A stretch of DNA of 32,000 bases from Chloroflexota bacterium (GTDB lineage Bacteria; Chloroflexota; Dehalococcoidia; Lucifugimonadales; JADFKI01): contig JACZVF010000001.1 of assembly GCA_022572805.1 (NCBI GenBank), positions 22,314-54,313 of the forward strand, in the 5' to 3' direction. The position numbers and the translations under genes were made by a program. Position 1 is the stretch's first letter. Each line of letters opens with the position of its first letter. The notes beneath the pieces were generated by a model that saw only the letters and a list, made by a program, of their open reading frames with translations, was not told the origin of the DNA and did no database searches. Shown here one piece after another: positions 9,391 through 27,783 of this stretch.

Positions 9391-9894
9391 ATGGAAGCCT
9401 TGGGAATCAATTTACCTGGCCTGATTACTCAGTTAGTCAGTTTCGCAATACTATTCGCCATCCTATACAAGCTGCTTTACAAGCCAATATTGGGAATGCT
9501 GGAGCAACGCACCAACCGTATCCAGGAGAGCCTGGAAACGGCGGAACGCGTTTCGCGGGAGGCCGCATCACAGCAGGAGCAAATGCAGCAGCAGATTGAA
9601 GCGGCGCGCAGCGAAGGCCAGCAGCTAATCGCCCAGGCCCGGGAGGTTGCCGAAAGGTTCCGCGAAGAGGAGCTTGCCAAGGCCCGTCAGGACATCGAAG
9701 GCGAGCGCACCAGGGCCACGGCGAACATCCAGCGCGAACGGGACGCGGCGATTGAGGACCTGCGGCGCGAGTTCGCGGGGCTAGCTATCACCGCGGCCGA
9801 GAGGGTGATCGAGAGGTCACTGGATGAGTCAGCGCATCAGGACATTATTAACCGGGTGCTTGAAGAGGGCCGGTCGCAAGCCAGCCTCAACTAA
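9391..9894 (+). CDS. atpF: F0F1 ATP synthase subunit b
   Basis: 167 aa with a single N-terminal TM helix followed by a long charged coiled-coil. AAGGAG RBS. Its operon position fits atpF. Confidence 0.88.
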   Translation: MEALGINLPGLITQLVSFAILFAILYKLLYKPILGMLEQRTNRIQESLETAERVSREAASQQEQMQQQIEAARSEGQQLIAQAREVAERFREEELAKARQDIEGERTRATANIQRERDAAIEDLRREFAGLAITAAERVIERSLDESAHQDIINRVLEEGRSQASLN

Positions 9895-9958
9895 GCAGCA
9901 GATTTGCAGGCACGGCGCGAATCACGCGCCGACCTTAATCGATAGAAAGAGAAATTAG

Positions 9959-10498
9959 ATGCCGAAGGGTGCGTCAGCCCGCAGATATGCCCAGGCCGCA
10001 TTCGAGATAGCCCTGGAGAACGACGAATTCGACGCGTGGCTCGAAGACCTGGGCTACCTTGCTGCCGCGTTGCAAAGCGATGAGTTTTCAGGGTTTCTAG
10101 ACGCCCCGCAGGTCGCGGTCAGGCGGAAGATCAGCCTGATTGATGAGACTGTTGCCGGCACGATAAGCCCGCTGAGCCGCAATCTCCTGGCCCTGCTTGC
10201 GAGCCGCAACTCGGCACATTTGGTGCCCAGCATAACGGGGGCTTATCAGGAGATGCTTGACGCCCACCGCGGCATCGAGCGTGCGGAGATCGTGTCGGCG
10301 GTCCCGCTATCGGACGAGCAGCAAAGCAGGGTATCCAATATGCTAAAAGATATGGTGGGCAAGGAGATAGCCCTCACTGTGCGGGTCGACCCGCAAATCC
10401 TTGGCGGCATCGTGGCCCGCGTAGGCGACAGCCTGATTGACGGAAGCACCCGAACCAAGCTGGAGGGTCTCCGGCGAGAGCTTTTACAGCAGGCATAA
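9959..10498 (+). CDS. atpH: F0F1 ATP synthase subunit delta (OSCP)
   Basis: 179 aa. YAQAAFEIALEN... and ...ILGGIVARVGDSLIDGSTRTKLEGLRREL are typical of delta. Confidence 0.88.
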   Translation: MPKGASARRYAQAAFEIALENDEFDAWLEDLGYLAAALQSDEFSGFLDAPQVAVRRKISLIDETVAGTISPLSRNLLALLASRNSAHLVPSITGAYQEMLDAHRGIERAEIVSAVPLSDEQQSRVSNMLKDMVGKEIALTVRVDPQILGGIVARVGDSLIDGSTRTKLEGLRRELLQQA

Positions 10499-10532
10499 AC
10501 TAATTAAATCCGCATAATCCACGGAGGCTGGA

Positions 10533-12044
10533 ATGGCAGTCAGAGGACAGGACATTGCGTCGGTAATCAAGCGGCAAATCGAAGGATTTGGCCAAGAGCT
10601 TGGCATGGTAGACGTGGGCACCGTGATAGAAGTCGGTGACGGCATCGCGCAGATTCACGGGCTTTCCGGCGTAGCATACGGCGAGCTGCTGTCCTTCGTG
10701 GGAGGCGTTATGGGAATGGCGCTAAACCTCGAGGAGGACAGCGTCGGTGCGGTCATCATGGGTGATCCCCTGGGCATAAAAGAGGGCAGCGAGGTCCGCA
10801 GCACCGGACGAGTAGTTGTCGTGCCCGTAGGCGACGCACTGTTGGGGCGCGTCGTGGATGCCCTGGGTCAGCCCATCGACGGCAAGGGGCCGATCAACAC
10901 CAGCAACACACGCGAGGTAGAGATCGTAGCGCCTGGCGTAGCCATACGCAGCCCGGTAAACACACCGGTGCAGACGGGCATCAAGGCAATCGACTCCATG
11001 ATACCGGTGGGCCGCGGACAGCGAGAGCTGATCATCGGTGACCGTTCCACAGGCAAGACCGCCATCGCAATCGACGCGATCATCAACCAGAAGGGTGGCG
11101 ACCTGGTCTGCATCTACGTGGCCATTGGCCAGAAGGCCAGCAAGGTGGCGCAGGTGGTAGGCCTCCTGGAGGAGCGCGGCGCACTGGACCATACGATCAT
11201 CGTTGCCGCCAACGCCTCCGACCCGGCCCCAATGCAGTACATTGCCCCATACGCCGGGTGCGCCATGGCTGAGGAGTTCATGTGGCAGGGCAAGGACGCC
11301 CTCATTATTTACGACGACCTCTCCAAGCACGCGTGGGCATACAGGCAGATGTCCCTGCTGCTGAAACGGCCTCCCGGACGCGAGGCCTACCCGGGCGACG
11401 TCTTCTACCTGCACAGCCGACTTCTGGAGCGCGCGGCCAAGCTTGATGATGCCCACGGCGGAGGTTCGATAACGGCGTTGCCGATCATCGAGACGCTGGC
11501 CGGCGACGTGTCGGCGTACGTGCCCACCAATGTTATCTCCATAACCGACGGCCAAATTTACCTGGAGCCGGAGCTGTTCAACGCCGGCATCAGGCCTGCC
11601 GTCAACGCTGGTCTGTCCGTGTCCCGGGTGGGCAGCGCCGCGCAAACAAAGGCAATGAGGGGAGTCGCCGGACGGCTGCGGTTGGACCTGGCCCAGTATC
11701 GAGAGCTGGTTACCTTCGCCCAGTTCGGTACCGCAGACCTGGACGCGGCCACCAGACAGCAGTTGGAGCGAGGGCAGAGAGCCACTGAGGTGCTGAAACA
11801 AGGCCAGAACTCTCCGTTGCCAGTGGAGCAGCAGGTGGCAATCCTGTTCGCGCTTAACAACGGGCATCTGGACGACGTAGATATCCCGCGAGTCACTGCG
11901 TTTGAGGCCGGATTCCACAGCTACATGACCTCCAGTCAGAAGGAACTTCTCGGCAAGATCGCCGAAGCGGGAGATATTGACGACGACACTGCCGAGGCGC
12001 TGACGGCGGCAATAACCGAATTCAAGGCCAGCGTGCCTTACTAA
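10533..12044 (+). CDS. atpA: F0F1 ATP synthase subunit alpha
   Basis: 503 aa with Walker A GDRSTGKT, plus [21 protein letters not shown] and ITDGQIYLE. Confidence 0.97.
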
Positions 12045-12059
12045 CAGGGCCAAGCACAT

Positions 12060-14349
<2,290 letters not shown>

Positions 14350-14392
14350 ACCGAATAGCCCAAAAACACCAAGATCCGCAAAGGGATTACGA

Positions 14393-14818
14393 ATGGCCCC
14401 CATGAAATTGGAAATAGTAACCGCCGAGCGGTTGGTCTACTCCGAAGACGTAGACATGCTGGTTGCGCCGGGCATCGACGGTGAGCTGGGCATATTGCCC
14501 CGACACGCGCCGCTGCTGACCGTCCTGAAACCTGGCGAAATCCGTGTAACCAGAGACGGCGACGTGAGCTACCTGGCCGTAAGCGGAGGCTTCCTCGAGG
14601 TGATGTCCGACACCGTAACTATCTTGGCGGACACGGCAGAACAGGCTGAAGAGATCAACGCCGAGCGGGCCGAGGCTGCCTTGGCCAGAGCGCAGGAGCG
14701 CATCGAATCTTCGGCATCCGACATGGACTTGCAGATGGCTATGGCATCGATGAGGCGGTCGCAGGCGCGCCTTGCAGTCGCGACGCGGCGGCGGCGCAGG
14801 CAGCAGCCACCTTCGTAA
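14393..14818 (+). CDS. atpC: F0F1 ATP synthase subunit epsilon
   Basis: 141 aa. KLEIVTAERLVYSEDVDMLVAPGIDGELGILPRHAPLLT is typical of epsilon. It is the last gene of the operon. Confidence 0.92.
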   Translation: MAPMKLEIVTAERLVYSEDVDMLVAPGIDGELGILPRHAPLLTVLKPGEIRVTRDGDVSYLAVSGGFLEVMSDTVTILADTAEQAEEINAERAEAALARAQERIESSASDMDLQMAMASMRRSQARLAVATRRRRRQQPPS

Positions 14819-14848
14819 CAAGCTCAATTCCCGAGAACCCGATTCCAG

Positions 14849-14892
14849 CAAAAAGGCCGGTGATTTTGAACCCCGGCCTTTTTGCTTCTTTA
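14849..14892. terminator. Probable bidirectional terminator between convergent atpC and rex
   Basis: The sequence reads AAAAAGGCCGG-tgattttgaacc-CCGGCCTTTTTGCTTCTTT. The stem is flanked by an A-tract upstream and a T-tract downstream. Confidence 0.7.
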
Positions 14893-14919
14893 CATCGGAC
14901 CTGAAAAAACGCCGCGAGG

Positions 14920-15540
14920 CTACCTTAGGTAGAAGGTCATCGACTGCAGGGACAGCACAGGATCGATATTGCGAATTACCGTGTTCATCGGCACCTGAGG
15001 CGCAACAGGGGCATAGTTCAGTATGCCCTTGACGTTGTTTTCGATAAGGTTCTCGATGACTCCCTGCGCCTCCGACGCCGGAACAGCCACGATTCCGATA
15101 GATATCTTCATCTCTTTGACAGTCTCGGCGAGGTCGGACATGGGTCTAACGGTGAAGCCGCCAATCTGGGTGCCAACCTGTTTCGGGTCGCCATCGAAGG
15201 CCGCTACAATCTTGAAGCCCTCAGGCGAGAAGCCGGGGTAGTTGATGATGGCGTGCCCCAGGCGCCCGACGCCAATTAGGCAGGCCCTCCATTCGCGGTC
15301 AAGTCCCAGGATCTCCCGGAGCTCCCGCAGCAGAAATCGTACGTTGTAGCCCCGTCCCTGCTTGCCGAACCTCCCAAAGTAGCTAAGGTCCTTCCTTATC
15401 TGCGCCGGCGTCATCTGCAATAGACTGCCAAGCTGCTGTGAACTGACCACGTCGGTCCCGCCATCCCTGAGCTGGCTGAGCGCCCTTACGTACAGTGGGA
15501 GCCGAAGGACCACGACCTCTGGGACTTCAAATGAGTCCAT
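14920..15540 (-). CDS. rex: Redox-sensing transcriptional repressor Rex
   Basis: LRLPLYVRALSQL...ISSQQLG...AQIRKDLSYFGRFGKQGRGYNV is the winged-helix part. A Rossmann-type LIGVGRLGHAI motif follows. The ORF opens at GTG 15558, but ATG 15540 with an AGGAAGG RBS is the likely start. Confidence 0.92.
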   Translation of the reverse strand: MDSFEVPEVVVLRLPLYVRALSQLRDGGTDVVSSQQLGSLLQMTPAQIRKDLSYFGRFGKQGRGYNVRFLLRELREILGLDREWRACLIGVGRLGHAIINYPGFSPEGFKIVAAFDGDPKQVGTQIGGFTVRPMSDLAETVKEMKISIGIVAVPASEAQGVIENLIENNVKGILNYAPVAPQVPMNTVIRNIDPVLSLQSMTFYLR

Positions 15541-15643
15541 ACACCTTCCTAGTTTCACAGAATTTCATAGGGGCGCAAGATTTGAAGCCGGCGAATCAAA
15601 GACGCCGTTCACACCAAGCGAAACAACACTACCGAACGCCGCT

Positions 15644-15695
15644 ATTCTATTAATACCCCAATAGTTCGTCAATTAGTTTGTGAATGGAATCACTA
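15644..15695 (-). promoter_or_regulatory. rex promoter (TTGACG, 17-nt spacer, TAGAAT) with an adjacent Rex-like box
   Basis: On the minus strand the -35 is at 15672..15667 and the -10 at 15649..15644. Immediately upstream, at 15678-15695, the + strand reads TTGTGAATGGAATCACTA. The left half-site is perfect and the whole matches TTGTGAA-N4-TTCACAA at 12 of 14 positions. Confidence 0.5.
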
Positions 15696-15842
15696 CCAAC
15701 ATCCTGATGAACGCTCCCATGTTACTGGAATAGATACCCGCCTTTGGACCCTGATAACAATGACCTCGGCACCCAAACAGTTTGAGGCCCTGCACGCGGT
15801 ATTTGACTGCTCTACGGGACATTCAGAACCGATTAACGATTC

Positions 15843-15871
15843 TTGACACCAAATATACTGAATGCTAGAAT
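15843..15871 (+). promoter_or_regulatory. Sigma-70-like promoter for citrate synthase: TTGACA, 17-nt spacer, TAGAAT
   Basis: TTGACA is at 15843-15848 and TAGAAT at 15866-15871, ~80 nt upstream of ATG 15951. Confidence 0.6.
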
Positions 15872-15950
15872 TGGCTTGCCCTCGCGGGCGAAGGCACCCA
15901 CTGCGAGAGTTCGTTCGCCGTCAGTCGAACATTTCCCTGGAGGATTTGGC

Positions 15951-17090
15951 ATGGCATCTGAAGAGAAGGTCGAGCTCAAAAGAGGCCTTCGTGATGTTTA
16001 CATAGATCGGACCAAGTCCAGCTTCATCGACGGCAAAGTCGGAAAGCTGCTTTACCGGGGCATCAATATCGACGACTTGGCCCAGAAATCCACGTTTGAG
16101 GAGACCATATACCTCCTTCTTTACACCGAGCTTCCCACCGAGAGCCAACTGAAGGCCTTTCAAGCCGAGTTGATCGCCAATAGGGCGCTGCCGGAAGACA
16201 TTCTCTCCATTATTGAGATCGTTAAAGACTCGCACCCCATGGACGTGCTTCGAACAGGCGTGTCGGCGCTTTCGGCCTTCGATCCCGAGACGGAAGACAT
16301 CTCCACGGAAGCGACCATTCGGAAGGGGGTTCGCCTCACAGCACAGGCGCCGACCATAGTGGCGGCCCACGCGCGCATCCGGAAAGGCAAGGACCCAATC
16401 GCGCCAAGCACCAGCCTTAACCAGGCCGCTAACTTCCTGTACATGCTTTTCGGTGAAGAGCCCGATCCGCGGGACGCCCGTCTTATAGATAAGGACTTCA
16501 TTCTGCACGCGGAACACGGCATAAACGCCTCCTCGTTTGGCGCCAGGGTGACCGCCTCCACTCAGGCAGACCTGCACTGCGCCGTCACCACGGGCATCGG
16601 CGTACTCAAAGGGCCCGCCCATGGCGGGGCGGCCGAAGAGGTCATGAAGATGGCCCTGGACATCGGCGATGAGGATAAGGCCGAGGACTACGTTCGAAAC
16701 TTGCTGAAAGATGGCGGGCGCGTGATGGGCTTCGGCCATCGGGTATACCGCGCCACCGACCCACGCGCATTCCACTTGAAGGATGATGCCAAAGAGTTGG
16801 GTGAGCGTAAGGGCCAACCCAAGTGGTTTTCAATTCTGGAATCCGTGACCAAAGTGATGGAGCCATATACCAGGCGGGGCATCTGCCAAAACGTAGACTT
16901 CTTCTCCGGCGCGATTTACTATCTACTGGGAATACCGGACGACCTGTTCATCTCCATATTCGCGATGGGTAGAATCCCTGGCTGGACGGTTCAGGTCGTG
17001 GAGCAGTTCGAAAACAATATTCTGCTCCGGCCCCGGTTGCAGTACGTGGGTGAAATGGACGTGCCGTACGTGCCCATAGAGGACCGCTAA
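15951..17090 (+). CDS. gltA: Citrate synthase (short ~380-aa type; citrate/2-methylcitrate synthase family)
   Basis: LRDVYIDRTKSSFIDGKVGKLLYRGINIDDL, HAEHGINASSF and GFGHRVYRATDPRA are catalytic His motifs. The track ORF starts at TTG 15843, which is the promoter -35. ATG 15951 with a GGAGG RBS is the likely start. Confidence 0.9.
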   Translation: MASEEKVELKRGLRDVYIDRTKSSFIDGKVGKLLYRGINIDDLAQKSTFEETIYLLLYTELPTESQLKAFQAELIANRALPEDILSIIEIVKDSHPMDVLRTGVSALSAFDPETEDISTEATIRKGVRLTAQAPTIVAAHARIRKGKDPIAPSTSLNQAANFLYMLFGEEPDPRDARLIDKDFILHAEHGINASSFGARVTASTQADLHCAVTTGIGVLKGPAHGGAAEEVMKMALDIGDEDKAEDYVRNLLKDGGRVMGFGHRVYRATDPRAFHLKDDAKELGERKGQPKWFSILESVTKVMEPYTRRGICQNVDFFSGAIYYLLGIPDDLFISIFAMGRIPGWTVQVVEQFENNILLRPRLQYVGEMDVPYVPIEDR

Positions 17091-17156
17091 GAAAAATTCA
17101 ACACTCTCCGGAAACCGCGGGGAACACATCTGGGGTGAGCATGGAAGGATTGGACT

Positions 17157-17354
17157 GTGACTGAAGAGGAGCAACCAGCAGAATCGGAATGCCAGCATTA
17201 CTGGCTTATCGAGAGTCCCAACGGCCCGGTCAGTATTGGCGTGTGCAAGCACTGTGGGGAGAAATCGGAGTTCAAGAACTCTATTCAGGGGTCCGGTTGG
17301 GACAGAGAGAACCCACAGGGCAGGCGAGCGAAACAGGCAAAAACGACCACCTAG
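17157..17354 (+). CDS. Hypothetical small protein with CxH...CxxC (possible zinc ribbon)
   Basis: 65 aa with a GTG start and a GGAAGGA RBS ~10 nt upstream. The sequence includes ECQHYWLIESPNGPVSIGVCKHCGEKSEFKNS and a basic tail. A strong terminator follows directly. Confidence 0.5.
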   Translation: MTEEEQPAESECQHYWLIESPNGPVSIGVCKHCGEKSEFKNSIQGSGWDRENPQGRRAKQAKTTT

Positions 17355-17379
17355 CTCTGCCGACACATCATGAAGTCCG

Positions 17380-17414
17380 GGGAGGCATCTGCGAGGATGC
17401 CTCCCTTTTTGTTT
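17380..17414 (+). terminator. Rho-independent terminator
   Basis: GGGAGGCATC-tgcgag-GATGCCTCCC followed by TTTTTGTTT. Confidence 0.85.
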
Positions 17415-17425
17415 AGGCCCATGCC

Positions 17426-18658
17426 ATGAGTGACAGCGGTCCGGAGCCCATAAAGGAGATAAGGCGCAGGATAGCGAGGGATGGCAGGATCACCTTCGAG
17501 GCGTTCATGCGGCTGGCGCTGTACCACAGCGATGGCGGGTATTACTCAACGCCGGCGCCCTTCGGGGAGTCTGGCGACTACTACACGGGCCCTGCCGTCC
17601 ACCCTGCGTTTGGCGCGTGCATCGCCAATCAGCTTCACCGCATGTGGGAGCTGCTGGACCGGCCAAGTCCCTTCCACGCCGTCGAGCTTGGGGCCGGCGC
17701 CGGCATCCTCAGCCGCGACGTTTTCGCCTACGCCGCCAACCTTCCGGACGACTTCCAAACGGCCGTCCGGTACATCACGCTGGACAGGTACAAGGGCCCC
17801 GCCGGCCCTGGCTCCGGACAAAGGGTCCTTACCGAAAGTGTGCCGCTGCGAGGTATCACAGGATGCCTGTTTTCCAACGAGCTGCCCGACGCATTCCCCG
17901 TACACAGGTTTCGCATGGAGGCCGGCCGCCTGCGCGAGATATACGTCTCTGTTGACGCAAGCGGCAACATGATTGAGGTGACAGGGGAGCTATCAACTCC
18001 CGACATCGAAGGGCGTCTTGCCGGGTTGGACTGGGGGTGGCCGGACGGCTACGAGGGCGAGGTCAATCTTCAGGCGGGACCCTGGATGAGAGAGCTGGCG
18101 TCTTCGCTGGATCAGGGGTTCGTCATCACCATCGACTACGGCTACCTGGCCGAAGAGCTTTACTCGCCGGCCAGGACCAGGGGGACGCTCCAGACCTACT
18201 ACAGACACGTGGATGGCTCCAGTCCGTACCAGCGCATCGGTAGGCAGGACCTTACGGCGCACGTCGACTTCTCAATGCTGATGTCTGAGGGAGAATCGGC
18301 CGGCCTGAAGCAGGTCGCATACCTGACCCAGGGCGTTTACCTGCGGCGACTGGGGTTGGATTCCATGATGGAAGGCCTGCGACGGCTGGAACTTCCCCTG
18401 CGCGAACGGACGGCCAACCTGAGAGCAATGCGCGAATTGGCGGATTCCGACGGCTTCGGAGAGTTCAAAGTCCTGGTGCAGTCCAAGGGCGTTGCAGGCG
18501 TAAAGGCCGAGGACATCTTTCCCACCAAAGAATTTCTGATTGACGCGACGCCACCGCTGAAGACCGACCATCACATGCCGGCGACCGAGTCCACGTACCC
18601 GCGGTCCAACTTTACGCTGGACGTGCTGTGGCCGATTGACGGCGGAAAAGACAGCTAA
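17426..18658 (+). CDS. Class I SAM-dependent methyltransferase, MidA/NDUFAF7 (DUF185) family
   Basis: 410 aa. ITFEAFMRLALYHSDGGYY...FGESGDYYTGPAVHPAFG...VELGAGAGILSRDV...ELPDAFPVHRF is typical of the MidA family. Confidence 0.82.
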   Translation: MSDSGPEPIKEIRRRIARDGRITFEAFMRLALYHSDGGYYSTPAPFGESGDYYTGPAVHPAFGACIANQLHRMWELLDRPSPFHAVELGAGAGILSRDVFAYAANLPDDFQTAVRYITLDRYKGPAGPGSGQRVLTESVPLRGITGCLFSNELPDAFPVHRFRMEAGRLREIYVSVDASGNMIEVTGELSTPDIEGRLAGLDWGWPDGYEGEVNLQAGPWMRELASSLDQGFVITIDYGYLAEELYSPARTRGTLQTYYRHVDGSSPYQRIGRQDLTAHVDFSMLMSEGESAGLKQVAYLTQGVYLRRLGLDSMMEGLRRLELPLRERTANLRAMRELADSDGFGEFKVLVQSKGVAGVKAEDIFPTKEFLIDATPPLKTDHHMPATESTYPRSNFTLDVLWPIDGGKDS

Positions 18659-19506
18659 ATTGCTGCGTCGCTCTCTTCAGTCTCGTCCTTCGACACGGAT
18701 GTGTTGGGTCGTGGCGCGCACCGGCGGGCGGTTGTGATGAAGCCCGTGTGCCCGACCATTCTGTGGGATGGCCTGACGCTGCGACCGCTCACGGACCACG
18801 GCCTCATGAGGATCTCGAAGGTCTCGATCATCTCGAACGTGCGTTGGCTTCGCAGGGCTTTGGTCAACTCGTGAAATTGCAGCACGGTTGGAAGGAAGCT
18901 GACGAACATACCGCCGCGAACCAGCTTATCCGAGGCGTGCGGCACAACTTGCCACGGCTCCGGAAGGTCCAGGACAATGCGGTCCAACTCATATTCGTCG
19001 ATGCCCTCGTACACATCCGCCTGCTTGAATTCGACGTTGGGGACTTCGCCCAGCATGGACCTGACGTTAGTGCCCGCCCTGTCCAGCATGTCCTCTCGCA
19101 CGTCGTATGAGTACACCTGTCCACGCTCTCCCACAGCCCGAATCAGGTTCATGGTCAATGCGCCTGAGCCGCAGCCGGCCTCCAGCACCCGAGCGCCCGA
19201 AAATATGTCGCCATACACCAGAATAGCGCCCACGTCCTTGGGGTAGATAACAGTCGCGATACGCGGCATCTCCAGGGTGTAGTCTGCCATGGTGGGTTTC
19301 ACCGCGAACAGAACATGCCCCTTATTGGTGGTCACCCACGTCCCGTCCTCCTGGCCAATAAGGTCCTCGTGTGGGAAGGCCCCGATGTGCGACTCGAATT
19401 TTTTGGATGGGGTCAGCGTAATCAGGTAATGCCTGCCCTTTTTGTCCTGCATAAGGACGTTGTCACCCTGGCCAAAAAGCCGAGAGGGCGCCTTTGTGTC
19501 CACCAT
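18655..19506 (-). CDS. trmI: tRNA (adenine-N1)-methyltransferase, TrmI/GCD14 family
   Basis: 283 aa. KGRHYLITLTPSKKFESHIGAFPHEDLIG..., PRIATVIYPKDVGAIL, VLEAGCGSGALT and VLDLPEPW match the family. Its stop codon overlaps the convergent MidA-family stop codon. Confidence 0.85.
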   Translation of the reverse strand: MVDTKAPSRLFGQGDNVLMQDKKGRHYLITLTPSKKFESHIGAFPHEDLIGQEDGTWVTTNKGHVLFAVKPTMADYTLEMPRIATVIYPKDVGAILVYGDIFSGARVLEAGCGSGALTMNLIRAVGERGQVYSYDVREDMLDRAGTNVRSMLGEVPNVEFKQADVYEGIDEYELDRIVLDLPEPWQVVPHASDKLVRGGMFVSFLPTVLQFHELTKALRSQRTFEMIETFEILMRPWSVSGRSVRPSHRMVGHTGFITTARRCAPRPNTSVSKDETEESDAAI

Positions 19507-19557
19507 AGTGCTGCTCCATGAGTTACCCTAATACCGGCATGGCAACCCAACTAATTT

Positions 19558-19603
19558 GGAGAATGAGAGAGGGCCGGTCTGCAACGCTATCCAGCCGGCC
19601 CTC
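19558..19603 (-). terminator. Hairpin between the peroxiredoxin gene and trmI (weak terminator candidate)
   Basis: Minus strand reads GAGGGCCGG-17 nt-CCGGCCCUC followed by UCUCAUUCUCC. The stem is good but the U-tract is poor. Confidence 0.35.
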
Positions 19604-19628
19604 AATACCTGTATTTGCCCGCGGACCC

Positions 19629-20087
19629 TTACAGCTTGTCAATCTCCGCCAGGATATCTTTGGGGTCCAGGTCGGCCGAGCTGTCGTAAACCCGCTTGAA
19701 GCGGATAACGCCTTCCTTATCGATAACGAAGACAGCACGACTGGCCGCGCCGCGCTGCTCGTTCCATATCCCGTAGGCGTGCGTCACCTGTCCCTTGGGA
19801 TGGAAATCCGACAGAATCGGGTAGGGAATGGTGCCTAGAGACATTGAGTAGGCGGTCTGAGTGGGCCTGGCGTCGTTGCTAATACCCAGAACCTGGGTAT
19901 CCTTCTCCTCGAACAGCGCGTTTGACCTGCGGAACAAGGAGACCTGGTCCGTTCAACCGCCTGTGAACGAGAAAATGTGGAAGGAGAGAACGACGTTCTT
20001 CTTTCCCTTGTAGCCGCTGAGCGTAACCGTGCTCAGGTCTTGCGCCGGCAGGGAAAAATCCGGCGCCTGCTGTCCTACATCTACCAT
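19629..20087 (-). CDS. AhpE/Bcp-like 1-Cys-type peroxiredoxin with an in-frame TGA (19953-19955) at the peroxidatic Cys position. It is either a candidate selenoprotein (Sec45) or a pseudogene.
   Basis: The track shows only the C-terminal 102 codons. The same frame continues upstream through TGA to ATG 20087, which has AGGAG 7 nt upstream. The full reading is MVDVGQQAPDFSLPAQDLSTVTLSGYKGKKNVVLSFHIFSFTGG-U-TDQVSLFRRSNALFEEKDTQVLGISNDARPTQ...PYPILSDFHPKGQVTHAYGIW...RAVFVIDKEGVIRF. Both halves are peroxiredoxin-like, and the TGA replaces the Cys of the FTxxC motif. Confidence 0.7.
19905..19955 (-). promoter_or_regulatory. Candidate bacterial SECIS element downstream of the in-frame UGA
   Basis: The mRNA reads UGA-ACGGACCAGGU-CUCCUUG-UUC-CGC-AGGUCAAAC-GCG-CUGUU-CGAGGAG. 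A 7-bp outer stem starts 11 nt after the UGA. Inside are an internal loop, a 3-bp inner stem and a 9-nt apical loop containing GGUC. Confidence 0.5.
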
Positions 20088-20144
20088 GCCTAACTCCTGG
20101 TTCAGAGTGGTCCTGGATTTACGCTCCGCTGAGACAGACGGAGA

Positions 20145-21665
20145 TTAAGCCCGCCGCCTCCAACGTAGGTCGGGTTGACGGGCCGCCCTGGCCTCGTCCA
20201 GTCGTGTATTTGGGCTATCATGGGGCGCGTCATGTAGAAGGCTGGGCTCCTCCCGGGCTTCCCGCGCTATAGTCTTCATCACCTCAATGAAATAGTCAAG
20301 CGTCTCCTTGGATTCGGTCTCCGTGGGCTCGACCATAAGGGCCTCCTCAACGATGAGGGGGAAGTACATGGTCGGCGGGTGAATACCGTAATCAATGAGG
20401 CGTTTGGCCACGTCAAGCGCGCTGACGCCGTGTTGTCGTTTCAAGGTGGCCGCCGAAAGTACGACCTCGTGCATGCAGACTCTGTCGTAGGGCAGGTCAA
20501 AGTCATTCTTTAGCTGGCTTTGCAGGTAGTTGGCGTTCAGCACCGCGTCATTGCTTATGGCGGCGATGCCGTCCTTGCCGAGGCTGCTTATGTAGGCATG
20601 CGCTCTCACAAGCGCGCCGAAGTTTCCGTGGAAGGCAGCCATGCGTCCTATGCTCTTCTCCGGCGTCGTGAAGCCAAAGGTCTCCTTTTTCTTGCCATCC
20701 GGGGCACTATTTGGGCCGCCGTCTACCTGCCGCGTCACCCAGGGCGTTGGCAGGTACGGCAGGAGCCTGGGGCCGACAAGAACAGGGCCGGAGCCGGGGC
20801 CGCCTCCGCCATGTGGTTGGGTGAAGGTCTTGTGCAGATTGGAGTGCATCACGTCGAAGCCCAGGTCGCCCATTCGCACCCGGCCCAGCAGCGCGTTCAA
20901 GTTGGCGCCGTCGCCGTAAACTATGCCTCCCGCGTCTCGGACAATCTTCACCACCTGTTCGATGTTGCTGTCGAAGAGACCGAGGGTGCTGGGCAGGGTA
21001 ATCATCAGACCGGCGAGATCGTCGCCGGCACTCTCGCGCAACGCGTCCAGGTCCGTGTCTCCCCGCGCATCCGATGGCAGAGTGACCACCTCGAATCCAG
21101 ACATTGTGGCGGTGGCGGGATTGGTGCCGTGGGCGCTATCCGGAATCAGCACCTTGGTCCGCTGGGTGTCCCCCCGGTCCAGGTGATAGGCCCGCGCCAT
21201 GAGCATACCGGCCAGCTCGCCGTCGGCGCCGGCCATAGGCGCCAGGGATACGCCGGGCATTCCGGTTATCGCCGCCAGGTACTCCTGAAGCTCCCACATG
21301 AGCTTTAGAGCGCCCTGCACAGTGGACTCCGGTTGCAGCGGATGGATCTCAGTGAAGCCCCGCATGGCGGCGACCTCGTCGTTGACCTTGGGGTTGTACT
21401 TCATGGTGCAGCTGCCCAGCGGGTAAAAATTGTGGTCTATGGAAAAGTTAAGCTGGCTCAACTGGGAAAAGTAGCGGACAATCTCGCCCTCAGTGACCTC
21501 GGGAAAGTCGATCTCGTCCCGCAGCATATCAGATGGCGGCAACGGCCCCTCAGGCACGTCGTTGGGAGGCAGGCTGACGCCCATCCTACCTGGAACGCTA
21601 CGGTCCATTAGCAGCCGGCGGCGACTGTCCTCGTACTTTTGCTGAAGGGAATTCCGCTTCCCCAT
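20145..21665 (-). CDS. gcvPB: Glycine dehydrogenase (aminomethyl-transferring) subunit 2
   Basis: 506 aa. NFYPLGSCTMKYNP and the PLP-lysine region NLHKTFTQPHGGGGPG match GcvPB. The start overlaps the gcvPA stop (TGATG). Confidence 0.95.
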   Translation of the reverse strand: MGKRNSLQQKYEDSRRRLLMDRSVPGRMGVSLPPNDVPEGPLPPSDMLRDEIDFPEVTEGEIVRYFSQLSQLNFSIDHNFYPLGSCTMKYNPKVNDEVAAMRGFTEIHPLQPESTVQGALKLMWELQEYLAAITGMPGVSLAPMAGADGELAGMLMARAYHLDRGDTQRTKVLIPDSAHGTNPATATMSGFEVVTLPSDARGDTDLDALRESAGDDLAGLMITLPSTLGLFDSNIEQVVKIVRDAGGIVYGDGANLNALLGRVRMGDLGFDVMHSNLHKTFTQPHGGGGPGSGPVLVGPRLLPYLPTPWVTRQVDGGPNSAPDGKKKETFGFTTPEKSIGRMAAFHGNFGALVRAHAYISSLGKDGIAAISNDAVLNANYLQSQLKNDFDLPYDRVCMHEVVLSAATLKRQHGVSALDVAKRLIDYGIHPPTMYFPLIVEEALMVEPTETESKETLDYFIEVMKTIAREAREEPSLLHDAPHDSPNTRLDEARAARQPDLRWRRRA

Positions 21666-22990
21666 CAGGCAGCAGCCTCGGCCAACGCCTGCGCGAAGGC
21701 TTCGATCTCTTGCCGGGAGTTAACCTCCGTGGCGCAGACCAGCATGCCGTTGGGCAGGAGATCGCTGATATCCAGGCCGCCAATGATTTTTCGGGCGAGC
21801 AGCTTTTCGTTGATTTCAGAGGGAGAGCCCGGACATTTTACGACGAACTCCTGGAAGAACGTCCCGTCCATGGGCAAGGAGTAGCCAGGTATTTTCTCGA
21901 TGAGCGACGCCAGGTAATGGGCTTTATGATAAGTCAGCTCCGCCATGTGACGCATGCCCTTCTTGCCGTTGGCCGCCATGTACACAGTGGACATAAGCGC
22001 TATCAGAGCTACTGATGTGCATATGTTGGAGGTGGCCCGCTCCCGCCTGATGTGCTGCTCCCGCGTCTGCAACGTGAGGACGTAGGCAAGCTTGCCTTCC
22101 GTGTCCACGGTGCGGCCCACGATGCGGCCGGGCATCTGCCGAATGTACCGCTGCTTGCAGGCGAAGATACCCACGTAGGGGCCTCCGAAGGTCGGCGCGA
22201 CGCCCAGGGCCTGACCCTCCGATGCGACAATGTCCGCGTCATACTCGCCGGGGGGCTTGAACAAGGCCATCGCCAGAGGGTCCGCATATACAACGAACAG
22301 GGCGCCTTGGGCGTGGACCTTTTCGGCCACGGCCTGCATATCCGCCACGTATCCGTAGAAGTCCGGCTGCTGCGCCAGGAGACACGCGGTACCCTCCGCC
22401 AACGTAATGCCGTCGCCGGAGACGATGTCGATATCGATGCCCTGGGACCTGGTGTAAGTTTCCAGCACCTTGAGGTAAGTGGGCGACACGCCGTCCAGCA
22501 CGGCGACACGCCGTCCCCCCTGGATTCGCACGGCCATCAGCGCGGCTTCGGCCAGCGACGTGGCGCCGTCGTACATGCCGGCGTTGGCCACATCCATGCC
22601 CGTCAGTTGAGCGCAAAGAGTTTGAAACTCGAACTCGGTCTGCAGCGTTCCCTGAGACACCTCAGGCTGGTATGGGGTATACGACGTGACGAACTCACTG
22701 CGGCCGGTCAGTTGCCGCACTATGGCCGGTACGTAATGCCTGTATGCGCCCGCGCCAAGAAAACAGGCGTATTCGCCCGGAATGAAATTGGCGGACGCCA
22801 GCTCCTCGGCATATCGAAGGAGCTCCATTTCCGACTTGGGCGGGGGTAAGTCCAGAGGCGGGTTTCGGTAGGCTTCGGGAATGTCTAGAAATAGCTCTTC
22901 GACGGAATCCACGCCGATGGCGTGCAGCATATCTCGTCTGTCGCTATCCGTGTTGGGGCTGTACGGAGACACGAATCCGTGGGAGTCCAT
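21665..22990 (-). CDS. gcvPA: Glycine dehydrogenase (aminomethyl-transferring) subunit 1
   Basis: 441 aa. FLGAGAYRHYVPA, SYTPYQPEVSQGTLQ and LQTREQHIRRERATSNICT are typical of GcvPA. Confidence 0.95.
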   Translation of the reverse strand: MDSHGFVSPYSPNTDSDRRDMLHAIGVDSVEELFLDIPEAYRNPPLDLPPPKSEMELLRYAEELASANFIPGEYACFLGAGAYRHYVPAIVRQLTGRSEFVTSYTPYQPEVSQGTLQTEFEFQTLCAQLTGMDVANAGMYDGATSLAEAALMAVRIQGGRRVAVLDGVSPTYLKVLETYTRSQGIDIDIVSGDGITLAEGTACLLAQQPDFYGYVADMQAVAEKVHAQGALFVVYADPLAMALFKPPGEYDADIVASEGQALGVAPTFGGPYVGIFACKQRYIRQMPGRIVGRTVDTEGKLAYVLTLQTREQHIRRERATSNICTSVALIALMSTVYMAANGKKGMRHMAELTYHKAHYLASLIEKIPGYSLPMDGTFFQEFVVKCPGSPSEINEKLLARKIIGGLDISDLLPNGMLVCATEVNSRQEIEAFAQALAEAAA

Positions 22991-23005
22991 AAGCTTCTCC
23001 CCAGC

Positions 23006-23392
23006 TCAGTCTTGGGAGGCCAGGAAGGACTCGTACTGTTCGGCGGACAGTAGCTTATCCAACTGGGAGGGGTCGCTGAGCTCCACCCGAATCATCCAAC
23101 CGGCCTCGAATGGGGCGTCATTTACGAGTTGCGGATTATCCAAAACCTGCTCGTTGCGCTCGGTGATCTTGCCGCTGACTGGGGAATACAGGTCGGACAC
23201 AGCCTTCACTGATTCGATCTCGCCCATCTTTTCAGCCCGACCGACCTCAGCGCCAACCTCGGGCAGCTCTACAAAGACCACGTCGCCCAGGCTTTCGGCC
23301 GCGAACTCGGTTATTCCCACCAGCACCACCGTGGCCGATTCCACCTGCACCCATTCGTGCTCTTCCGAGTACTTAAGCTCTGTAGGATTCAT
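23006..23392 (-). CDS. gcvH: Glycine cleavage system H protein
   Basis: 128 aa. YSEEHEWV and the lipoyl-lysine motif GEIESVKAVSDLYSPVSG match GcvH. Confidence 0.95.
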   Translation of the reverse strand: MNPTELKYSEEHEWVQVESATVVLVGITEFAAESLGDVVFVELPEVGAEVGRAEKMGEIESVKAVSDLYSPVSGKITERNEQVLDNPQLVNDAPFEAGWMIRVELSDPSQLDKLLSAEQYESFLASQD

Positions 23393-24501
23393 CCGTTTCT
23401 TCTCCGTGAATAAAAGGGCAGTTCCGTTACCTCTGCGTCCACCGGCCTGCCTCGGACGTCAATCCGAATGACGGTGCCCGGCACGGCATATTCGATGCCA
23501 ACGTAGCCCAGTCCGATGCCGGCTTCCAAAGTTGGAGAGTGCCCGCCGCTCGATACCAGCCCGATGTTTTCAGCGCCACTCATTATAGCGTAACCATGCC
23601 GGGGGATGCCTCTGCCGGTAATAGTAAATCCAATCAATTTTCTGGCCAACGCGGCGTCCCTGATTCGTGTCAAGGAAGGGCCGGCTACGTACCCGTCGCG
23701 GTCCGGATCAACGAAGCGGTCCAGCCCCGCCTCGTACGGGTTTATGTTCACATCCATGTCGTTGCCGTGCAAGAGAAGCCCGGCCTCCAGGCGCAGCACG
23801 TCCCGAGCGCCCAGACCGCAGGGCACGGCGCCGGCCGCAATAAGCTTTCGCCATATTTCGACTGCCGCTGAAGCAGGCACGATGATCTCGAAGCCGTCCT
23901 CGCCTGTGTAGCCCGTGCGGGCCAGCCACACTTCGATCGACGCAATAGACACCCTTTTGGTGGCGAAGGGCCTTATCGCCGACACGCCCGCGTCATCCAA
24001 GTCGCATAGACCGTCTACCATTTCCACGGCGTCGGGCCCCTGTACAGCGATCATGGCGTATTCGGATGTCACGTCAACAACGGTCACTTCGGAGCCAGAC
24101 TGGTCCCAGCGCTTCAGCCACTGGAGCACGACGTCGGTGTTGGAGGCATTGGGTACCAGCAGGAACATCTCGTTGGACCGCCGATACACGATGCAGTCGT
24201 CTATGATTCCGCCGGACTCGTCGCAAATGACGTTGTAGCGGGCGCGGCCGAGCCTGAGAGCTGACGCACTTATGCTAAGAACCCCGTCGAGGAGAGACGC
24301 AGCGCCGGGTCCGGATATCTCCAATCGTCCCATGTGCGACACATCGAATATACCGGCGGCAGTGCGGACGGACCGTGCCTCGTCGAGGATGCCGGAATAT
24401 TGCACGGGCATCTCCCAACCAGAGAAGGGCACCAGCCTACCGCCCTGCGCGACGTGGGCCTCGTATAGTGGAGTTCGTTGTAATTGCGCCTTATCGGCCA
24501 T
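23389..24501 (-). CDS. gcvT: Glycine cleavage system aminomethyltransferase T
   Basis: MADKAQLQRTPLYEAHVAQGGRLVPFSGWEMPVQY...FDVSHMGRLEISG... matches GcvT. The track ORF extends to 24582, but the conserved N-terminus and GAGG RBS favour ATG 24501. An ATGA overlap links it to gcvH. Confidence 0.93.
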   Translation of the reverse strand: MADKAQLQRTPLYEAHVAQGGRLVPFSGWEMPVQYSGILDEARSVRTAAGIFDVSHMGRLEISGPGAASLLDGVLSISASALRLGRARYNVICDESGGIIDDCIVYRRSNEMFLLVPNASNTDVVLQWLKRWDQSGSEVTVVDVTSEYAMIAVQGPDAVEMVDGLCDLDDAGVSAIRPFATKRVSIASIEVWLARTGYTGEDGFEIIVPASAAVEIWRKLIAAGAVPCGLGARDVLRLEAGLLLHGNDMDVNINPYEAGLDRFVDPDRDGYVAGPSLTRIRDAALARKLIGFTITGRGIPRHGYAIMSGAENIGLVSSGGHSPTLEAGIGLGYVGIEYAVPGTVIRIDVRGRPVDAEVTELPFYSRRRNG

Positions 24502-24597
24502 GCGTACCTCGCCCCATTTTTGGCGTCCCCATGCCGATTTTTGAAAAATTCTTGCAAGGGAGAGTTGGCCCGCGAGATCCATGCCAGACCCGGCGGA

Positions 24598-24626
24598 ATG
24601 TTATTGGGCCTCGCAAAGGATGTCAA
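24598..24626 (-). promoter_or_regulatory. Candidate gcvT operon promoter: TTGACA, 17-nt spacer, TAACAT
   Basis: Minus strand reads aatgTTGACAtcctttgcgaggcccaaTAACATtcc. It leaves a ~90-nt leader before ATG 24501. Confidence 0.45.
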
Positions 24627-24718
24627 CATTCGACGACCGCCACGGGTTTTTTGTACATCAGCGAAGGAAGACGGCACTTGCGAATCAGGTCGGTGAGCGA
24701 TATTTTCAGGAGTCGTTC

Positions 24719-24727
24719 TGGTATAAT
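24719..24727 (+). promoter_or_regulatory. Candidate extended -10 promoter for ftsH (TGgTATAAT)
   Basis: TG is at 24719-24720 and TATAAT at 24722-24727. There is no good -35. It lies ~100 nt upstream of the ftsH ATG. Confidence 0.4.
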
Positions 24728-24825
24728 ACAAGTAGCGTCGGCTTGCAAGCGCCCATGCCGCCTTAGGCTCGTTTAGCAACCAGCCACGCATTAATCGCGC
24801 ACCGACGGGTGTATAGGAAACCTAA

Positions 24826-26679
24826 ATGAATTCCCGGCTCATGCGGAACAGCTTCATATACCTGCTGATCATAGTAGCTGTGCTCGCCATCTTCTTTACT
24901 TTGTTCTCGGACCCTCTTGGCGGCTCGCGAGAGCTTCCCATCAGCGACATCGTCACCATGGCCGCCAGGGGAGACGTGGACAGGATAGAGGTCAGGGGAG
25001 ACAAGCTGACGGTGTTTACGACGTCGGGCGAGACGGTCACATCCCGCAAGGAGCAGGACTCCTCCATCGTCAAGATTTTGGAGAACGCCGGCATAGACCC
25101 GCTGGCCTCCAATGTGCAGATCGAGGTCAGGGGGTCCAGCGGCCTTGGCAGCCTATTTGGTATTTTGATCAATTTCCTTCCCCTTATCTTTTTTGGGGCC
25201 ATACTGCTGTTCATGATGCGGCAGGCCCAGGGCAACAGCAATCAGACTTTCAGCTTTGGCCGCAGTCGGGCCCGCATGTTCGTGGGCAACAGCCCGTCGG
25301 TCAGCTTCGATGATGTCGCCGGCGTGCAGGAGGCCAAGGAAGAGCTGGAAGAGGTCGTCGAGTTCCTGAAGTTTCCGGAGCGTTTCACCAGCCTGGGCGC
25401 CAAGATTCCCAAGGGCGTGCTGCTGGTGGGCCCTCCAGGAACCGGCAAGACCCTGCTGGCCCGTGCTGTGGCCGGAGAGGCGGAGGTCCCCTTCTTCTCC
25501 ATATCTGGCTCAGAGTTCGTGGAGATGTTCGTGGGCGTGGGCGCGGCCCGAGTACGCGACCTGTTCGACCAGGCCAAACGCAACTCCCCCTGCATCGTTT
25601 TCATTGACGAGATCGACGCCGTGGGAAGGCACCGCGGCGCTGGACTTGGCGGCGGCCACGATGAACGCGAGCAAACACTGAACCAGATCCTCGTGGAGAT
25701 GGACGGATTCGACGTGACCACCAACGTCATCGTCCTGGCGGCTACCAACCGGCCGGATATCCTGGACCCGGCGCTGCTTCGGCCCGGCCGTTTCGACCGG
25801 CGCGTGGTGCTGGACAATCCAGACATTCGCGGCAGGCTTCAGATTCTCGAGGTCCACTCAAAAGGTAAGCCACTGGCCGACGACCTGGATCTGGCGCATG
25901 TCGCCAAGCAGACGGTGGGTTTCAGCGGCGCGGACCTGGCCAATCTTGCCAACGAAGCTGCCATTCTGGCAGCCCGCAGACACCTGACGAAGATCACTAA
26001 CGAGGAGTTCGCGGAGTCAATCGACCGGGTAATTGCGGGTCCGGCCCGTAAGAGCAGGGTGGTGAGCGAACGCGAGAAGCGCATCACCGCATTCCACGAG
26101 GCAGGTCACGCCCTTGTTGGCTTCCTCATTCCAGAGGCGGACAACGTTACGAAGATATCCATTGTCGCCAGGGGGCAAATGGGGGGATACACCAGGTTCT
26201 CCCCTGAGGAAGAGCACAACCTGGTCTCCAAAAAGGAGTTGCAGGCGAAACTGGCCGTGGCCTTGGGAGGACGGACGGCAGAGGAGATCGTGTTCAGTGA
26301 GATTACCACCGGAGCCAGCAACGACCTGGAACAGGCAACCCAGATAGCCCGTGCCATGGTTACCCAGCTCGGCATGAGCGAAAAGATGGGGCCGCGCACC
26401 TTCGGCAAACGGGAGGAGATGGTATTCCTGGGCCGCGAGATTCACGAGCAGGTGGACTACAGCGATCACTTTGCGGAGGAGATCGACGCCGAAGTGCGGC
26501 GTTTCATTCAGGAAGCTCACGACACCGCCACCGAGCGACTTACAGAAAACCGCGAAACCTTGGATAAGGTCGCTGAATACCTGCTGGAATTTGAAACTGC
26601 GGAGGAAAGCGTGCTGGACGAACTTTTCTCCGGCGCAGGCCACGATGACGAGCCTGAGGCCATCTCGGCGGACGATTAG
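24826..26679 (+). CDS. ftsH: ATP-dependent zinc metalloprotease FtsH
   Basis: 617 aa with two N-terminal TM segments, AAA+ Walker A GPPGTGKT, Walker B IVFIDEID, the [11 protein letters not shown] and the zinc motif HEAGHAL. Confidence 0.97.
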
Positions 26680-26709
26680 CTGTCCGTTTACTAATTGACC
26701 TCATTGATG

Positions 26710-26749
26710 AACAGGGCGGCCCTGATTGGACCGCCCTGTTCGCTTTTGG
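26710..26749 (+). terminator. Rho-independent terminator after ftsH
   Basis: AACAGGGCGG-ccctgattgga-CCGCCCTGTT followed by CGCTTTTGG. Confidence 0.75.
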
Positions 26750-26759
26750 AGCCCTGCGG

Positions 26760-27629
26760 TTAGAGGGCGGAAACGATATCCCTCGCGCGTGCTATGGCAT
26801 CAATGTGGGCCTGCGGGGTTTCAAGACCGCTGTTCATTGTGTTGAAGGACAGGTGCGTAGCGCCCATCTCCTTCCAGGCCAAAGCATCCTGAACGCAGTC
26901 CTCGATCGACCGATCGCCGACGGTCACCCAGCCTTCCAGGCCTATCGAGCCCGGGTCCCGCCCGCTCTCAACAGCGGAGGCCCGCATTTTTTCCACCAGC
27001 GCCTTCCTGGAATCGTCCGGGCTACCGGTCAGGATCCATCCGTCGGCGATACGGCCCACCCGCCGCGCCACTGCGTCTACTCCGCCTCCCAGCCAGATTG
27101 GGATCGGCCTCTGCACCGGCAGCGGATTCAGCCCCGCATCGTCAATCTTGTGCCAACGCCCTTCAAAAGTCACAAGAGGCTCGGTCCACAGCCTACGAAG
27201 TACGTCAATCTGCTCCTCCGAGCGCCTGCCCCTGTTTTGGAAGTTCTGTCCCAGCGCTTCGTACTCCACTGGATTCCAGCCCGTGCCTATGCCAAGCCGC
27301 AGCCTGCCTCGTGACAGAACGTCGGCCGCCGCCGCCTGCTTGGCCACGAGAACGGTCTGTCGCTGGGGAAGTATGACGATGCCCGACGCCAGCCCAATCG
27401 TCTCCGTGACGCCTGCCAAGAAGCCGAACAGCACGAAGGGTTCGTGGAACATGTGGGTGTGCCTGTACGGTCCGGTTAGGTCTGGGTGGGTGTCCGGATT
27501 CGCTCCCACTACGTGATCATATGCCAGTATGTGGTCGTACCCCAACGACTCGGCCGCCTGGGCGTAGGCCTTAATGGCGCCGGGGTCATCTCCGATTTCC
27601 GTCTGGGGAAAGGTAACTCCAATTTTCAT
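26760..27629 (-). CDS. Luciferase-like monooxygenase (LLM) family oxidoreductase, probably F420-dependent
   Basis: 289 aa. MKIGVTFPQTEIGDDPGAIKAYAQAAESLGYDHILAYDHV...ILPQRQTVLVAKQAAAADVLSRGRLRLGIGTGWNPVEYEALG...RGRRSEEQIDVLRRLW resembles the Rv2161c-type LLM F420 oxidoreductase clade. This is from memory. The cofactor cannot be proven from sequence. Confidence 0.75.
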   Translation of the reverse strand: MKIGVTFPQTEIGDDPGAIKAYAQAAESLGYDHILAYDHVVGANPDTHPDLTGPYRHTHMFHEPFVLFGFLAGVTETIGLASGIVILPQRQTVLVAKQAAAADVLSRGRLRLGIGTGWNPVEYEALGQNFQNRGRRSEEQIDVLRRLWTEPLVTFEGRWHKIDDAGLNPLPVQRPIPIWLGGGVDAVARRVGRIADGWILTGSPDDSRKALVEKMRASAVESGRDPGSIGLEGWVTVGDRSIEDCVQDALAWKEMGATHLSFNTMNSGLETPQAHIDAIARARDIVSAL

Positions 27630-27783
27630 CAGCGTCCTCCGTGTAGGTGTGCGTTTCCATATTCCTGAGCTGGCTCCCTGAGCCGGGGCGGTCCAAGCCT
27701 CAAGTTAGTGTAATATATATGCTATTCGGCGCGGCGGTGTCCATATTTGACCCCAAGCGCGCCACAGGTGTTGACTTCTTTTT

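Follow-up and report, generated by a model that had tools for sequence, protein, structure and literature searches.

A gene on the minus strand (19629..20087) of a 32,000-nucleotide (nt) stretch of Chloroflexota bacterium DNA, contig JACZVF010000001.1, in all likelihood encodes a single-domain peroxiredoxin of the AhpE subfamily, 152 residues long, in which selenocysteine (Sec), specified by UGA codon 45, would serve as the peroxidatic residue. This assignment, made from comparative sequence analysis, concerns the gene referred to below as prx; the whole 32,000-nt stretch is referred to as the window. The initial annotation of the window proposed a selenocysteine peroxiredoxin, and this interpretation is supported by conservation of the TGA in 80 of 80 related species, by RNA structure downstream of the UGA, by orthologs with a Cys codon, and by the occurrence of SelA in relatives. 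On either side of the UGA the frame is uninterrupted and selected at the protein level, and two hairpins downstream of the UGA are under selection as RNA.

Reading frame and database annotation

The complete coding sequence runs on the minus strand from the ATG at 20087-20085 to the TAA at 19631-19629 and comprises 44 codons, the UGA, and a further 107 codons. The translation begins M-VDVG, reaches FTGG immediately before the UGA, resumes with TDQVSLF, and ends with DKL at the TAA. A ribosome-binding site, AGGAG, is read from the sequence at 20094..20098 (minus), 6 nt 5′ of the ATG, and the 44 sense codons between this start and the in-frame TGA are confirmed as originally described. The UGA (19953..19955, minus) occupies the peroxidatic Cys position in the motif FTGG-U-T, where the orthologs L081–L088 have a Cys codon, TGC or TGT. 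The predicted product has a mass of ∼17 kDa, its N-terminal peptide is VDVGQQAPDFSLPAQDLSTVTLSGYK, and its predicted Sec peptide is FSFTGG-U-TDQVSLFR.

The mechanical list of open reading frames (ORFs) for this region contains only a fragment of 102 residues (19629..19937), as had been stated, beginning at a TTG (19935..19937, minus) that ORF finders take as a start and that is really the internal codon Leu51. NCBI nr contains the identical fragment under the name 'redoxin domain-containing protein [Chloroflexota bacterium]' (MCH8825416.1, MCH8869185.1, MCH9037794.1, and MCI0770247.1), and 21 contigs, the longest of 80,098 bp, carry it. The public annotation of this gene is therefore truncated at the UGA. 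The protein collection contains no exact match to the full-length protein with Trp at position 45, whether from the window or from locus L093, and none to the full-length L093 protein with X or Cys at that position.

The genetic code itself is not reassigned, as the initial annotation had argued, because TGA is the true stop of at least four other genes in the window, namely gcvPA, gcvT, a phosphonate-binding protein gene, and a permease gene. The window has a G+C content of 59%, and a scan of it for further TGA-interrupted frames finds none besides prx.

Conservation of the UGA codon

A tblastn scan with the joined 152-residue sequence, covering one genome per species, returns 587 relatives, of which the best 80, from 80 species, were analyzed, giving family alignments of 81 sequences with the window copy. 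These 80 share 48–89% identity with the window protein and are matched over residues 1–152 in a single frame. Nearly all are metagenome-assembled genomes of Dehalococcoidia or other Chloroflexota, with many complete chromosomes among them; a contig of Entotheonella and another of 'Armatimonadetes' are also included. TGA is found at the identical codon, within FT[GSA]G-TGA, in 80/80. The genes are 150–158 codons long, except for two that are shorter and one that is ended by a contig edge, and ATG stands at the aligned start position in 79/81. No further stop or frameshift occurs within the 81 genes, and the independent stops or frameshifts that, according to the initial annotation, would point to decay are thus absent from the aligned Sec-form genes. 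Twelve of the 81 terminate with TGA, indicating that TGA works as a stop inside the family too.

Residues G5, F11, F41, and T42 are invariant in 81/81, and their codons vary synonymously at the rate of the whole gene, from which it follows that the first 44 codons belong to the translated protein. The codons flanking the UGA are restricted as well: the preceding Gly codon (19956-19958, minus, in the window) is GGT in 67/79, and the following codon is ACN in 76/81. These preferences indicate that the U-UGA-AC context is itself conserved, and it may tune the balance between termination and Sec insertion.

A single-base change from TGC or TGT to TGA, or a wrong base call, would produce a pseudogene or an apparent one, and the initial annotation offered this as its alternative. 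One base separates TGA from either Cys codon, a relative at 76% identity (L081) does have TGC, and the publicly annotated product is a fragment. None of this accounts for a TGA at the same codon in 80/80 species at 48–89% identity with no other stop or frameshift, for purifying selection on the N-terminal 44 codons, for downstream RNA structure that is kept with compensatory changes (see below), or for the occurrence of the exact fragment on 21 independent contigs. With intact frames and selected RNA structure in so many species, decay or sequencing error is scarcely credible and is treated as excluded.

A search of protein databases with the joined sequence gives a picture of how the family has been annotated. 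The best 120 clusters comprise 61 C-terminal fragments of 87–123 residues that start just past the TGA, 24 full-length proteins with Trp, and 35 with Cys at the position of the UGA; clusters of fragments include ones on chromosomes of 1.7–3.3 Mb. One 'Trp' protein was checked on the DNA (L091:482-940; the Trp proteins lie within P0002–P0035), and the codon is TGA. The 'Trp' forms are evidently an annotation artefact of a gene caller using a code in which UGA specifies Trp.

Peroxiredoxin fold and active site

When Cys is substituted for the stop, the joined product matches one AhpC/TSA domain (PF00578) that spans the TGA, extending over residues 4–130 and model positions 1–123 of 124 with a score of 110.3 bits (cut-off 26 bits; E 7.5e-32). 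The joined 152-residue product also matches the Redoxin domain. The earlier view that both halves are thioredoxin-fold peroxiredoxin sequence is thus borne out by a single domain. The top seven PDB sequences are without exception AhpE or AhpE-like, with E values of 4e-31 to 6e-29 over residues 1–133; the next best is an archaeal peroxiredoxin (6.5e-21), followed by a chain annotated as Bcp (1.2e-17). The protein is assigned to the AhpE subfamily because the nearest non-AhpE family is ten orders of magnitude weaker in this comparison; of the 'AhpE/Bcp type' named in the initial annotation, the first half stands, whereas Bcp is reached only at 1.2e-17.

The closest relative of solved structure is Mycobacterium tuberculosis AhpE (Rv2238c; PDB 1XXU, 1XVW, 4X0X, and 5C04), a 1-Cys peroxiredoxin that resembles the window protein in its length of ∼153 residues, in lacking a resolving Cys, and in sharing the FTG-x-C/U loop and the LSDF-x-P-x-G and NR-x-x-F-V-I/V-D motifs. 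It differs in having Cys instead of Sec and in keeping the active-site Pro (FFPLAFTGIC, compared with FHIFSFTGGU in the window protein). The reductant of AhpE is mycothiol with mycoredoxin-1, a system not expected in Chloroflexota.

The catalytic residues other than Cys are retained. Thr42 (codon 19962..19964, minus), the conserved Thr of TxxU, is invariant in 81/81 and aligns with the Thr of FTGIC in AhpE, and Arg117 (19737..19739, minus), the active-site Arg, is likewise invariant in 81/81 and aligns with the Arg of NRGTFVVD. T42, U45, and R117 occupy the catalytic positions, in agreement with the initial annotation, which placed the TGA exactly at the peroxidatic Cys of FTxxC. At the Pro position of PxxxTxxC, the window protein has Ile38 (19974..19976, minus), preceded by a conserved His37 (80/81). 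The Ile was correctly noted at the outset, but it is not the oddity it was taken for, since the whole subfamily shows the trait: the position is Val in 53/81, and no Pro is found in the remaining subfamily sequences inspected, Cys forms included.

The window protein is a single domain of 152 residues with zero cysteines. Among the relatives, 61/81 have Cys at position 71, within GIS-C-D, and in them Cys71 is a candidate resolving residue; the window copy is without it, the corresponding residue being Asn (19875-19877, minus).

The domain match also bears on whether translation simply stops at the UGA and a separate C-terminal protein of 102 residues is made from the TTG at 19937. Gene callers do yield that model. 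Such a protein would lack the active-site loop, strands β1 to β3, and the catalytic residue, and the domain match needs both halves. The TTG is not conserved as a start, the called fragments begin at differing residues across relatives, no ribosome-binding site was noted by eye upstream of the TTG, and the 44 codons upstream of the UGA are conserved as protein. The conserved TGA, the intact genes, and the selection upstream of the TGA exclude this model for practical purposes, just as they do decay and error; we consider it extremely improbable.

RNA structure downstream of the UGA

The 84 nt beginning with the TGA align without gaps in all 81 sequences. Compensatory changes were counted by Fitch parsimony on a neighbor-joining tree built from the rest of the gene. 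Two hairpins are found, one at the classical position of the bacterial Sec insertion sequence (SECIS) and one farther downstream.

Hairpin 1 (19904..19942, minus) starts 10 nt after the UGA and has a folding energy of −14.1 kcal/mol (z −2.0). In the window its lower stem, UCUCCUUG/CGAGGAGA, leads into a UU/UU internal loop and then a variable upper stem, with the apical loop ∼27 nt past the UGA. The upper stem differs in sequence and register by clade, being CCGGC/GCCGG, CAGGGC/GCCCUG, or UUCGGGCC/GGCUCGAA. This bipartite hairpin is the minimum free energy fold in nearly all 81 sequences, though weak in L025 and L029, and its loop lies 17–30 nt (median 27) past the UGA. Independent compensatory changes are observed at column pairs 18:48 (six), 19:47 (four), 21:45 (three), 27:39 (three), and 28:38 (four).

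Hairpin 2, AUACCCAG-GUU-CUGGGUAU, forms 8 bp at 19882..19900 (minus), 53–71 nt past the UGA, within the codons for D63-T-Q-V-L-G-I69. Its energy in the window is −9.5 kcal/mol (z −2.9). It is the RNAalifold consensus, with 98.3% of cells paired over the 81 sequences, and independent double changes are found at 58:72 (five), 63:67 (five), and 57:73 (two). The apex is GGU or GU in 80/81 and has the form A-GGUNC-U in 66/81, ∼60 nt from the UGA.

Selection acts on these structures as RNA. Pairing falls from 81% to 34–43% when the 3′ partners are slid by one to three columns. Compared with synonymous-codon shuffles, codons 46–70 have a mean z of −2.86, with 65/81 sequences below −2, whereas three control regions of the gene give mean z values of −0.4 to −0.6, with 4–5/81 below −2. 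Synonymous codon entropy is about as expected along the gene and collapses at codons 44, 50–52, 58, and 60–68. Codon 63 is AAT in 42/42, whereas all other Asn positions favor AAC, codon 64 is GCC in 55/60, and codon 67 is CTG in 67/81; codon 66, in the loop, is unconstrained.

In its position, hairpin 1 is like a SECIS of the Escherichia coli fdhF type, beginning 10 nt after the UGA with its apical loop 17–30 nt downstream. The usual location of the bacterial element has been given as 'immediately 3′ of the UGA' (PMC9312934), and the criterion applied to a SECIS here, a conserved G in a small apical loop, has also been described previously (PMC1088965). The prx gene departs from this type in having two hairpins, of which the better conserved lies 53–71 nt past the UGA, and in that hairpin 1 is without a conserved loop nucleotide. 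The A-GGUNC-U apex of hairpin 2 recalls the A-GGUC-U loop of fdhF; the likeness may be coincidental because the GU of the loop is also forced by a conserved Val codon.

The low-G+C SAR202 Sec forms L025 and L029 carry a perfect mini-hairpin, GUUCA-GGU-UGAAC, 18 nt past the UGA (∼10150-10165; columns 21–33). It is compatible with a GGU-loop determinant able to sit in either position.

A search for conserved in-frame TGA codons in 88 loci (1.6 Mb), aimed at a SECIS consensus for the lineage, finds only the prx family, and a search for A-GGU(N)C-U hairpins near an in-frame TGA finds essentially only prx hairpin 2. Other clusters of in-frame TGA in the 88 loci were rejected as alternative-frame artefacts or adjacent genes. 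Two non-prx A-GGU(N)C-U candidates near an in-frame TGA are implausible, lying in apparently non-coding frames (that in L033 looks antisense).

Cysteine-codon forms

Codon 45 of the Cys forms is TGC in L081, TGT in L082–L088, and TGC in L089 and L090. An old marine clade, P0032/P0038 (L082–L087, TGT), shares the window gene order around prx, and the genes of this clade, standing in the same place in that order, are positional orthologs. In them hairpin 1 is lost (2–3/13 pairs), hairpin 2 is lost, and Gln65, invariant in Sec forms, is Lys or Glu. The distant Cys form L089/L090 has the canonical Pro and no hairpin 1. The RNA structure therefore goes with the UGA. L081 (TGC, 76% identity) and L088 (TGT) keep hairpin 2 and most of hairpin 1, and for this reason they look like recent converts to Cys. 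L088 (L088:3001-3417) is on a long-read contig of 5x coverage, its C-terminus is apparently frameshifted, and an IS1595 transposase gene is ∼2 kb away; this copy may be in decay or may have resulted from indel errors.

Selenocysteine machinery and the identity of the inserted residue

SelA is found close to prx in two relatives. On chromosome OY821663.2 (L032), a SelA is encoded 7.3 kb downstream of the Sec-prx (L032:17748-19100), with a TIGR00474 score of 550 bits against a cut-off of 268. On JAPPHY010000003.1 (L093), a SelA matching PF03841, 87% identical to the L032 protein, is encoded 4.9 kb downstream of the TGA-prx (L093:10001-11356), and here gene calling has produced the complete 152-codon prx, TGA included. 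The gene order in this Dehalococcoidia lineage is prx, a TrmI-like methyltransferase gene, further genes, an AMP-binding enzyme, an HMGL-like enzyme, and selA. Many records from Chloroflexota, Dehalococcoidia, and SAR202 bear the name SelA. The BSepDB paper places the L050 organism, Dehalococcoidia bacterium 10f4566d-ab44-49ae-b774-fc9f760c6436, in the top ten bacteria by number of selenoprotein genes, with 46, and every species in BSepDB has the Sec pathway (PMC13326102).

SelA, SelB, and SelD of E. coli were used as tblastn probes against all loci. The SelA probe detects the L032 gene, which the TIGR00474 match confirms. The SelB match in L025, identical in L029, is TypA/BipA and was rejected; weaker SelB-probe matches are found in L016 and L023. 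SelD is not found at any of the loci with its probe, and ARAGORN detects no tRNA-Sec in the window or in the 1.6 Mb of loci.

Several observations weigh against reading the UGA as Sec. The 32-kb window contains neither selA, selB, selD, nor tRNA-Sec, and the same is true of the flanks at most loci. G occupies the first two loop positions of hairpin 1 in only 37/81 sequences, the upper stem of hairpin 1 is weak in the window copy, and L025 and L029 have poor versions of both hairpins. No Rfam model matches, either at gathering thresholds on the window or at permissive E values on 19500-20200, where nothing relevant is found.

The first two of these points would equally suit a UGA that is read through without Sec, by near-cognate insertion of Trp or Cys or by programmed read-through stimulated by the hairpins, and downstream structures can stimulate read-through in general. 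The recoded site, however, is a redox-active Cys that exchanges only with Cys codons, which is the signature of a Sec/Cys pair, and Trp or Gly at this site would give a dead peroxidase. Carriers of the gene have SelA, one carrier has been published as rich in selenoproteins (PMC13326102), and Prx (TxxU) is already established as a family of selenoproteins (PMC1794560, PMC2398784). Read-through without Sec is consequently judged very unlikely, and Sec at position 45 is the preferred interpretation.

Proposed mechanism

Under this interpretation, prx would probably be transcribed together with the upstream gcvTHPAPB genes. At UGA45, a SelB-GTP-Sec-tRNA(Sec) complex tethered to the downstream structure would insert Sec in competition with release factor 2. 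Hairpin 1 stands at the classical SECIS position; hairpin 2 may assist or may be the actual binding site. The Sec45 selenolate, activated by Thr42 and Arg117, would attack the peroxide and form a selenenic acid, whose reduction would then fall to an external thiol partner in the manner of a 1-Cys (here '1-Sec') peroxiredoxin; an external reductant is proposed because the window protein is without any cysteine.

A further and rather doubtful possibility is that the recoding signal is bipartite, with hairpin 2 acting as the SelB-binding module or as an obligatory second module. Folded hairpin 1 would then serve as a spacer, bringing hairpin 2 to within ∼13 single-stranded nt of the UGA. Such an arrangement is compatible with RNA-level selection on hairpin 2 in Sec forms and its loss in old Cys forms, and also with L025 and L029, which alone among the Sec forms have a degraded hairpin 2 and which carry the mini-hairpin instead. 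If true, the signal would constitute a new architecture for the bacterial SECIS, with hairpin 2 far outside the range of SECIS predictors, and could help to explain selenoprotein genes that lack a 'canonical' SECIS, which make up ∼13% of catalogued bacterial selenoprotein genes (PMC13326102).

Relation to known selenoproteins

PrxU of Eubacterium acidaminophilum has been characterized experimentally, and peroxiredoxin TxxU is a long-established bacterial selenoprotein family. The window protein resembles this family ('Prx, pfam00578, TxxU', of which PrxU is the founder) in its AhpC/TSA domain, in having Sec at the peroxidatic Cys position in TxxU, and in that Cys homologs far outnumber Sec forms. 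Twelve members were listed in a 2006 genome survey (PMC1794560), the family is also tabulated in PMC13188914, it is widespread in marine and aquatic metagenomes, and the Global Ocean Sampling (GOS) metagenome contains 253 Sec and 7,348 Cys Prx sequences, placing the family among the most abundant selenoprotein families there (PMC2398784). This literature agrees with the initial annotation that Sec-for-Cys peroxiredoxins are known, from PrxU and from metagenome surveys, but not with its description of them as rare. The window protein differs from PrxU and the TxxU family in belonging to the AhpE branch, in its length of 152 residues, in having no Cys, and in the Ile/Val in place of Pro, a residue that a 2026 review considers part of a 'highly conserved PxxxTxxU motif' (PMC13188914). 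Its score against the PrxU equivalog NF040737 is 67.8 bits, below the cut-off of 270, placing it outside that group.

The gene therefore joins an already known family of Sec peroxiredoxins, and large selenoproteomes of Dehalococcoidia have already been published (PMC13326102); the known picture of selenoproteins is unchanged by it. What is unusual is the combination of Ile/Val in place of the Pro of PxxxTxxC, the absence of cysteine, and the second hairpin 53–71 nt past the UGA. It represents a 1-Sec peroxiredoxin without the 'invariant' proline, and its two-hairpin signal offers a well-supported test case for broader models of the bacterial SECIS. At least half of the relatives in public databases are deposited as 'redoxin domain-containing protein' fragments of ∼100 residues or with an active-site Trp, meaning that an antioxidant enzyme widespread in Chloroflexota of the Dehalococcoidia/SAR202 type, which are abundant aquatic bacteria, is systematically misread. 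The family additionally offers, at one locus, many natural examples of the enzyme with Sec and with Cys, a resource for understanding why selenium is kept or lost.

Genomic context

The genes gcvT, gcvH, gcvPA, and gcvPB (20145..24582, minus), identified by NCBIfam equivalog matches, lie directly upstream of prx, separated from it by a spacer of 57 nt in which no promoter-like site is found. The gcvPA stop and gcvPB start overlap as ATGA (21662-21668, minus), placing a genuine TGA stop 1.7 kb upstream of the recoded one, and the two are probably on the same transcript. A gcv operon is upstream in 17/80 Sec loci and also in Cys-form loci, and the TrmI-like methyltransferase gene is downstream in 34/80. 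As gcv is upstream in only 17/80, the linkage of prx to glycine cleavage is a feature of the lineage and not a rule of the family, and for the same reason the idea that lipoyl-GcvH might act as the peroxiredoxin reductant stays speculation.

A G+C-rich hairpin, GAGGGCCGG...CCGGCCCUC, is found at 19603-19569 (minus), 26 nt past the prx stop, with no U-run after it; the 74-nt segment holding it has a folding energy of −27.5 kcal/mol. Between prx and the TrmI-like gene it may act in termination or in stabilizing the mRNA.

A 754-residue ORF beginning with GTG (10722-12986, minus), which overlaps the ATP synthase alpha and gamma genes in antisense, is an artefact of high G+C content and not a gene. 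The order of genes over window positions 9000-27700 is shared with the distant marine Chloroflexota contigs L082–L087 and comprises ATP synthase (alpha, 10533-12044, gamma, and beta), a Rex-like repressor (14920-15558), citrate synthase, Methyltransf_28, the TrmI-like methyltransferase, prx, and gcvPB-PA-H-T. Beyond the gcv genes, the window encodes FtsH and an F420-dependent LLM oxidoreductase.

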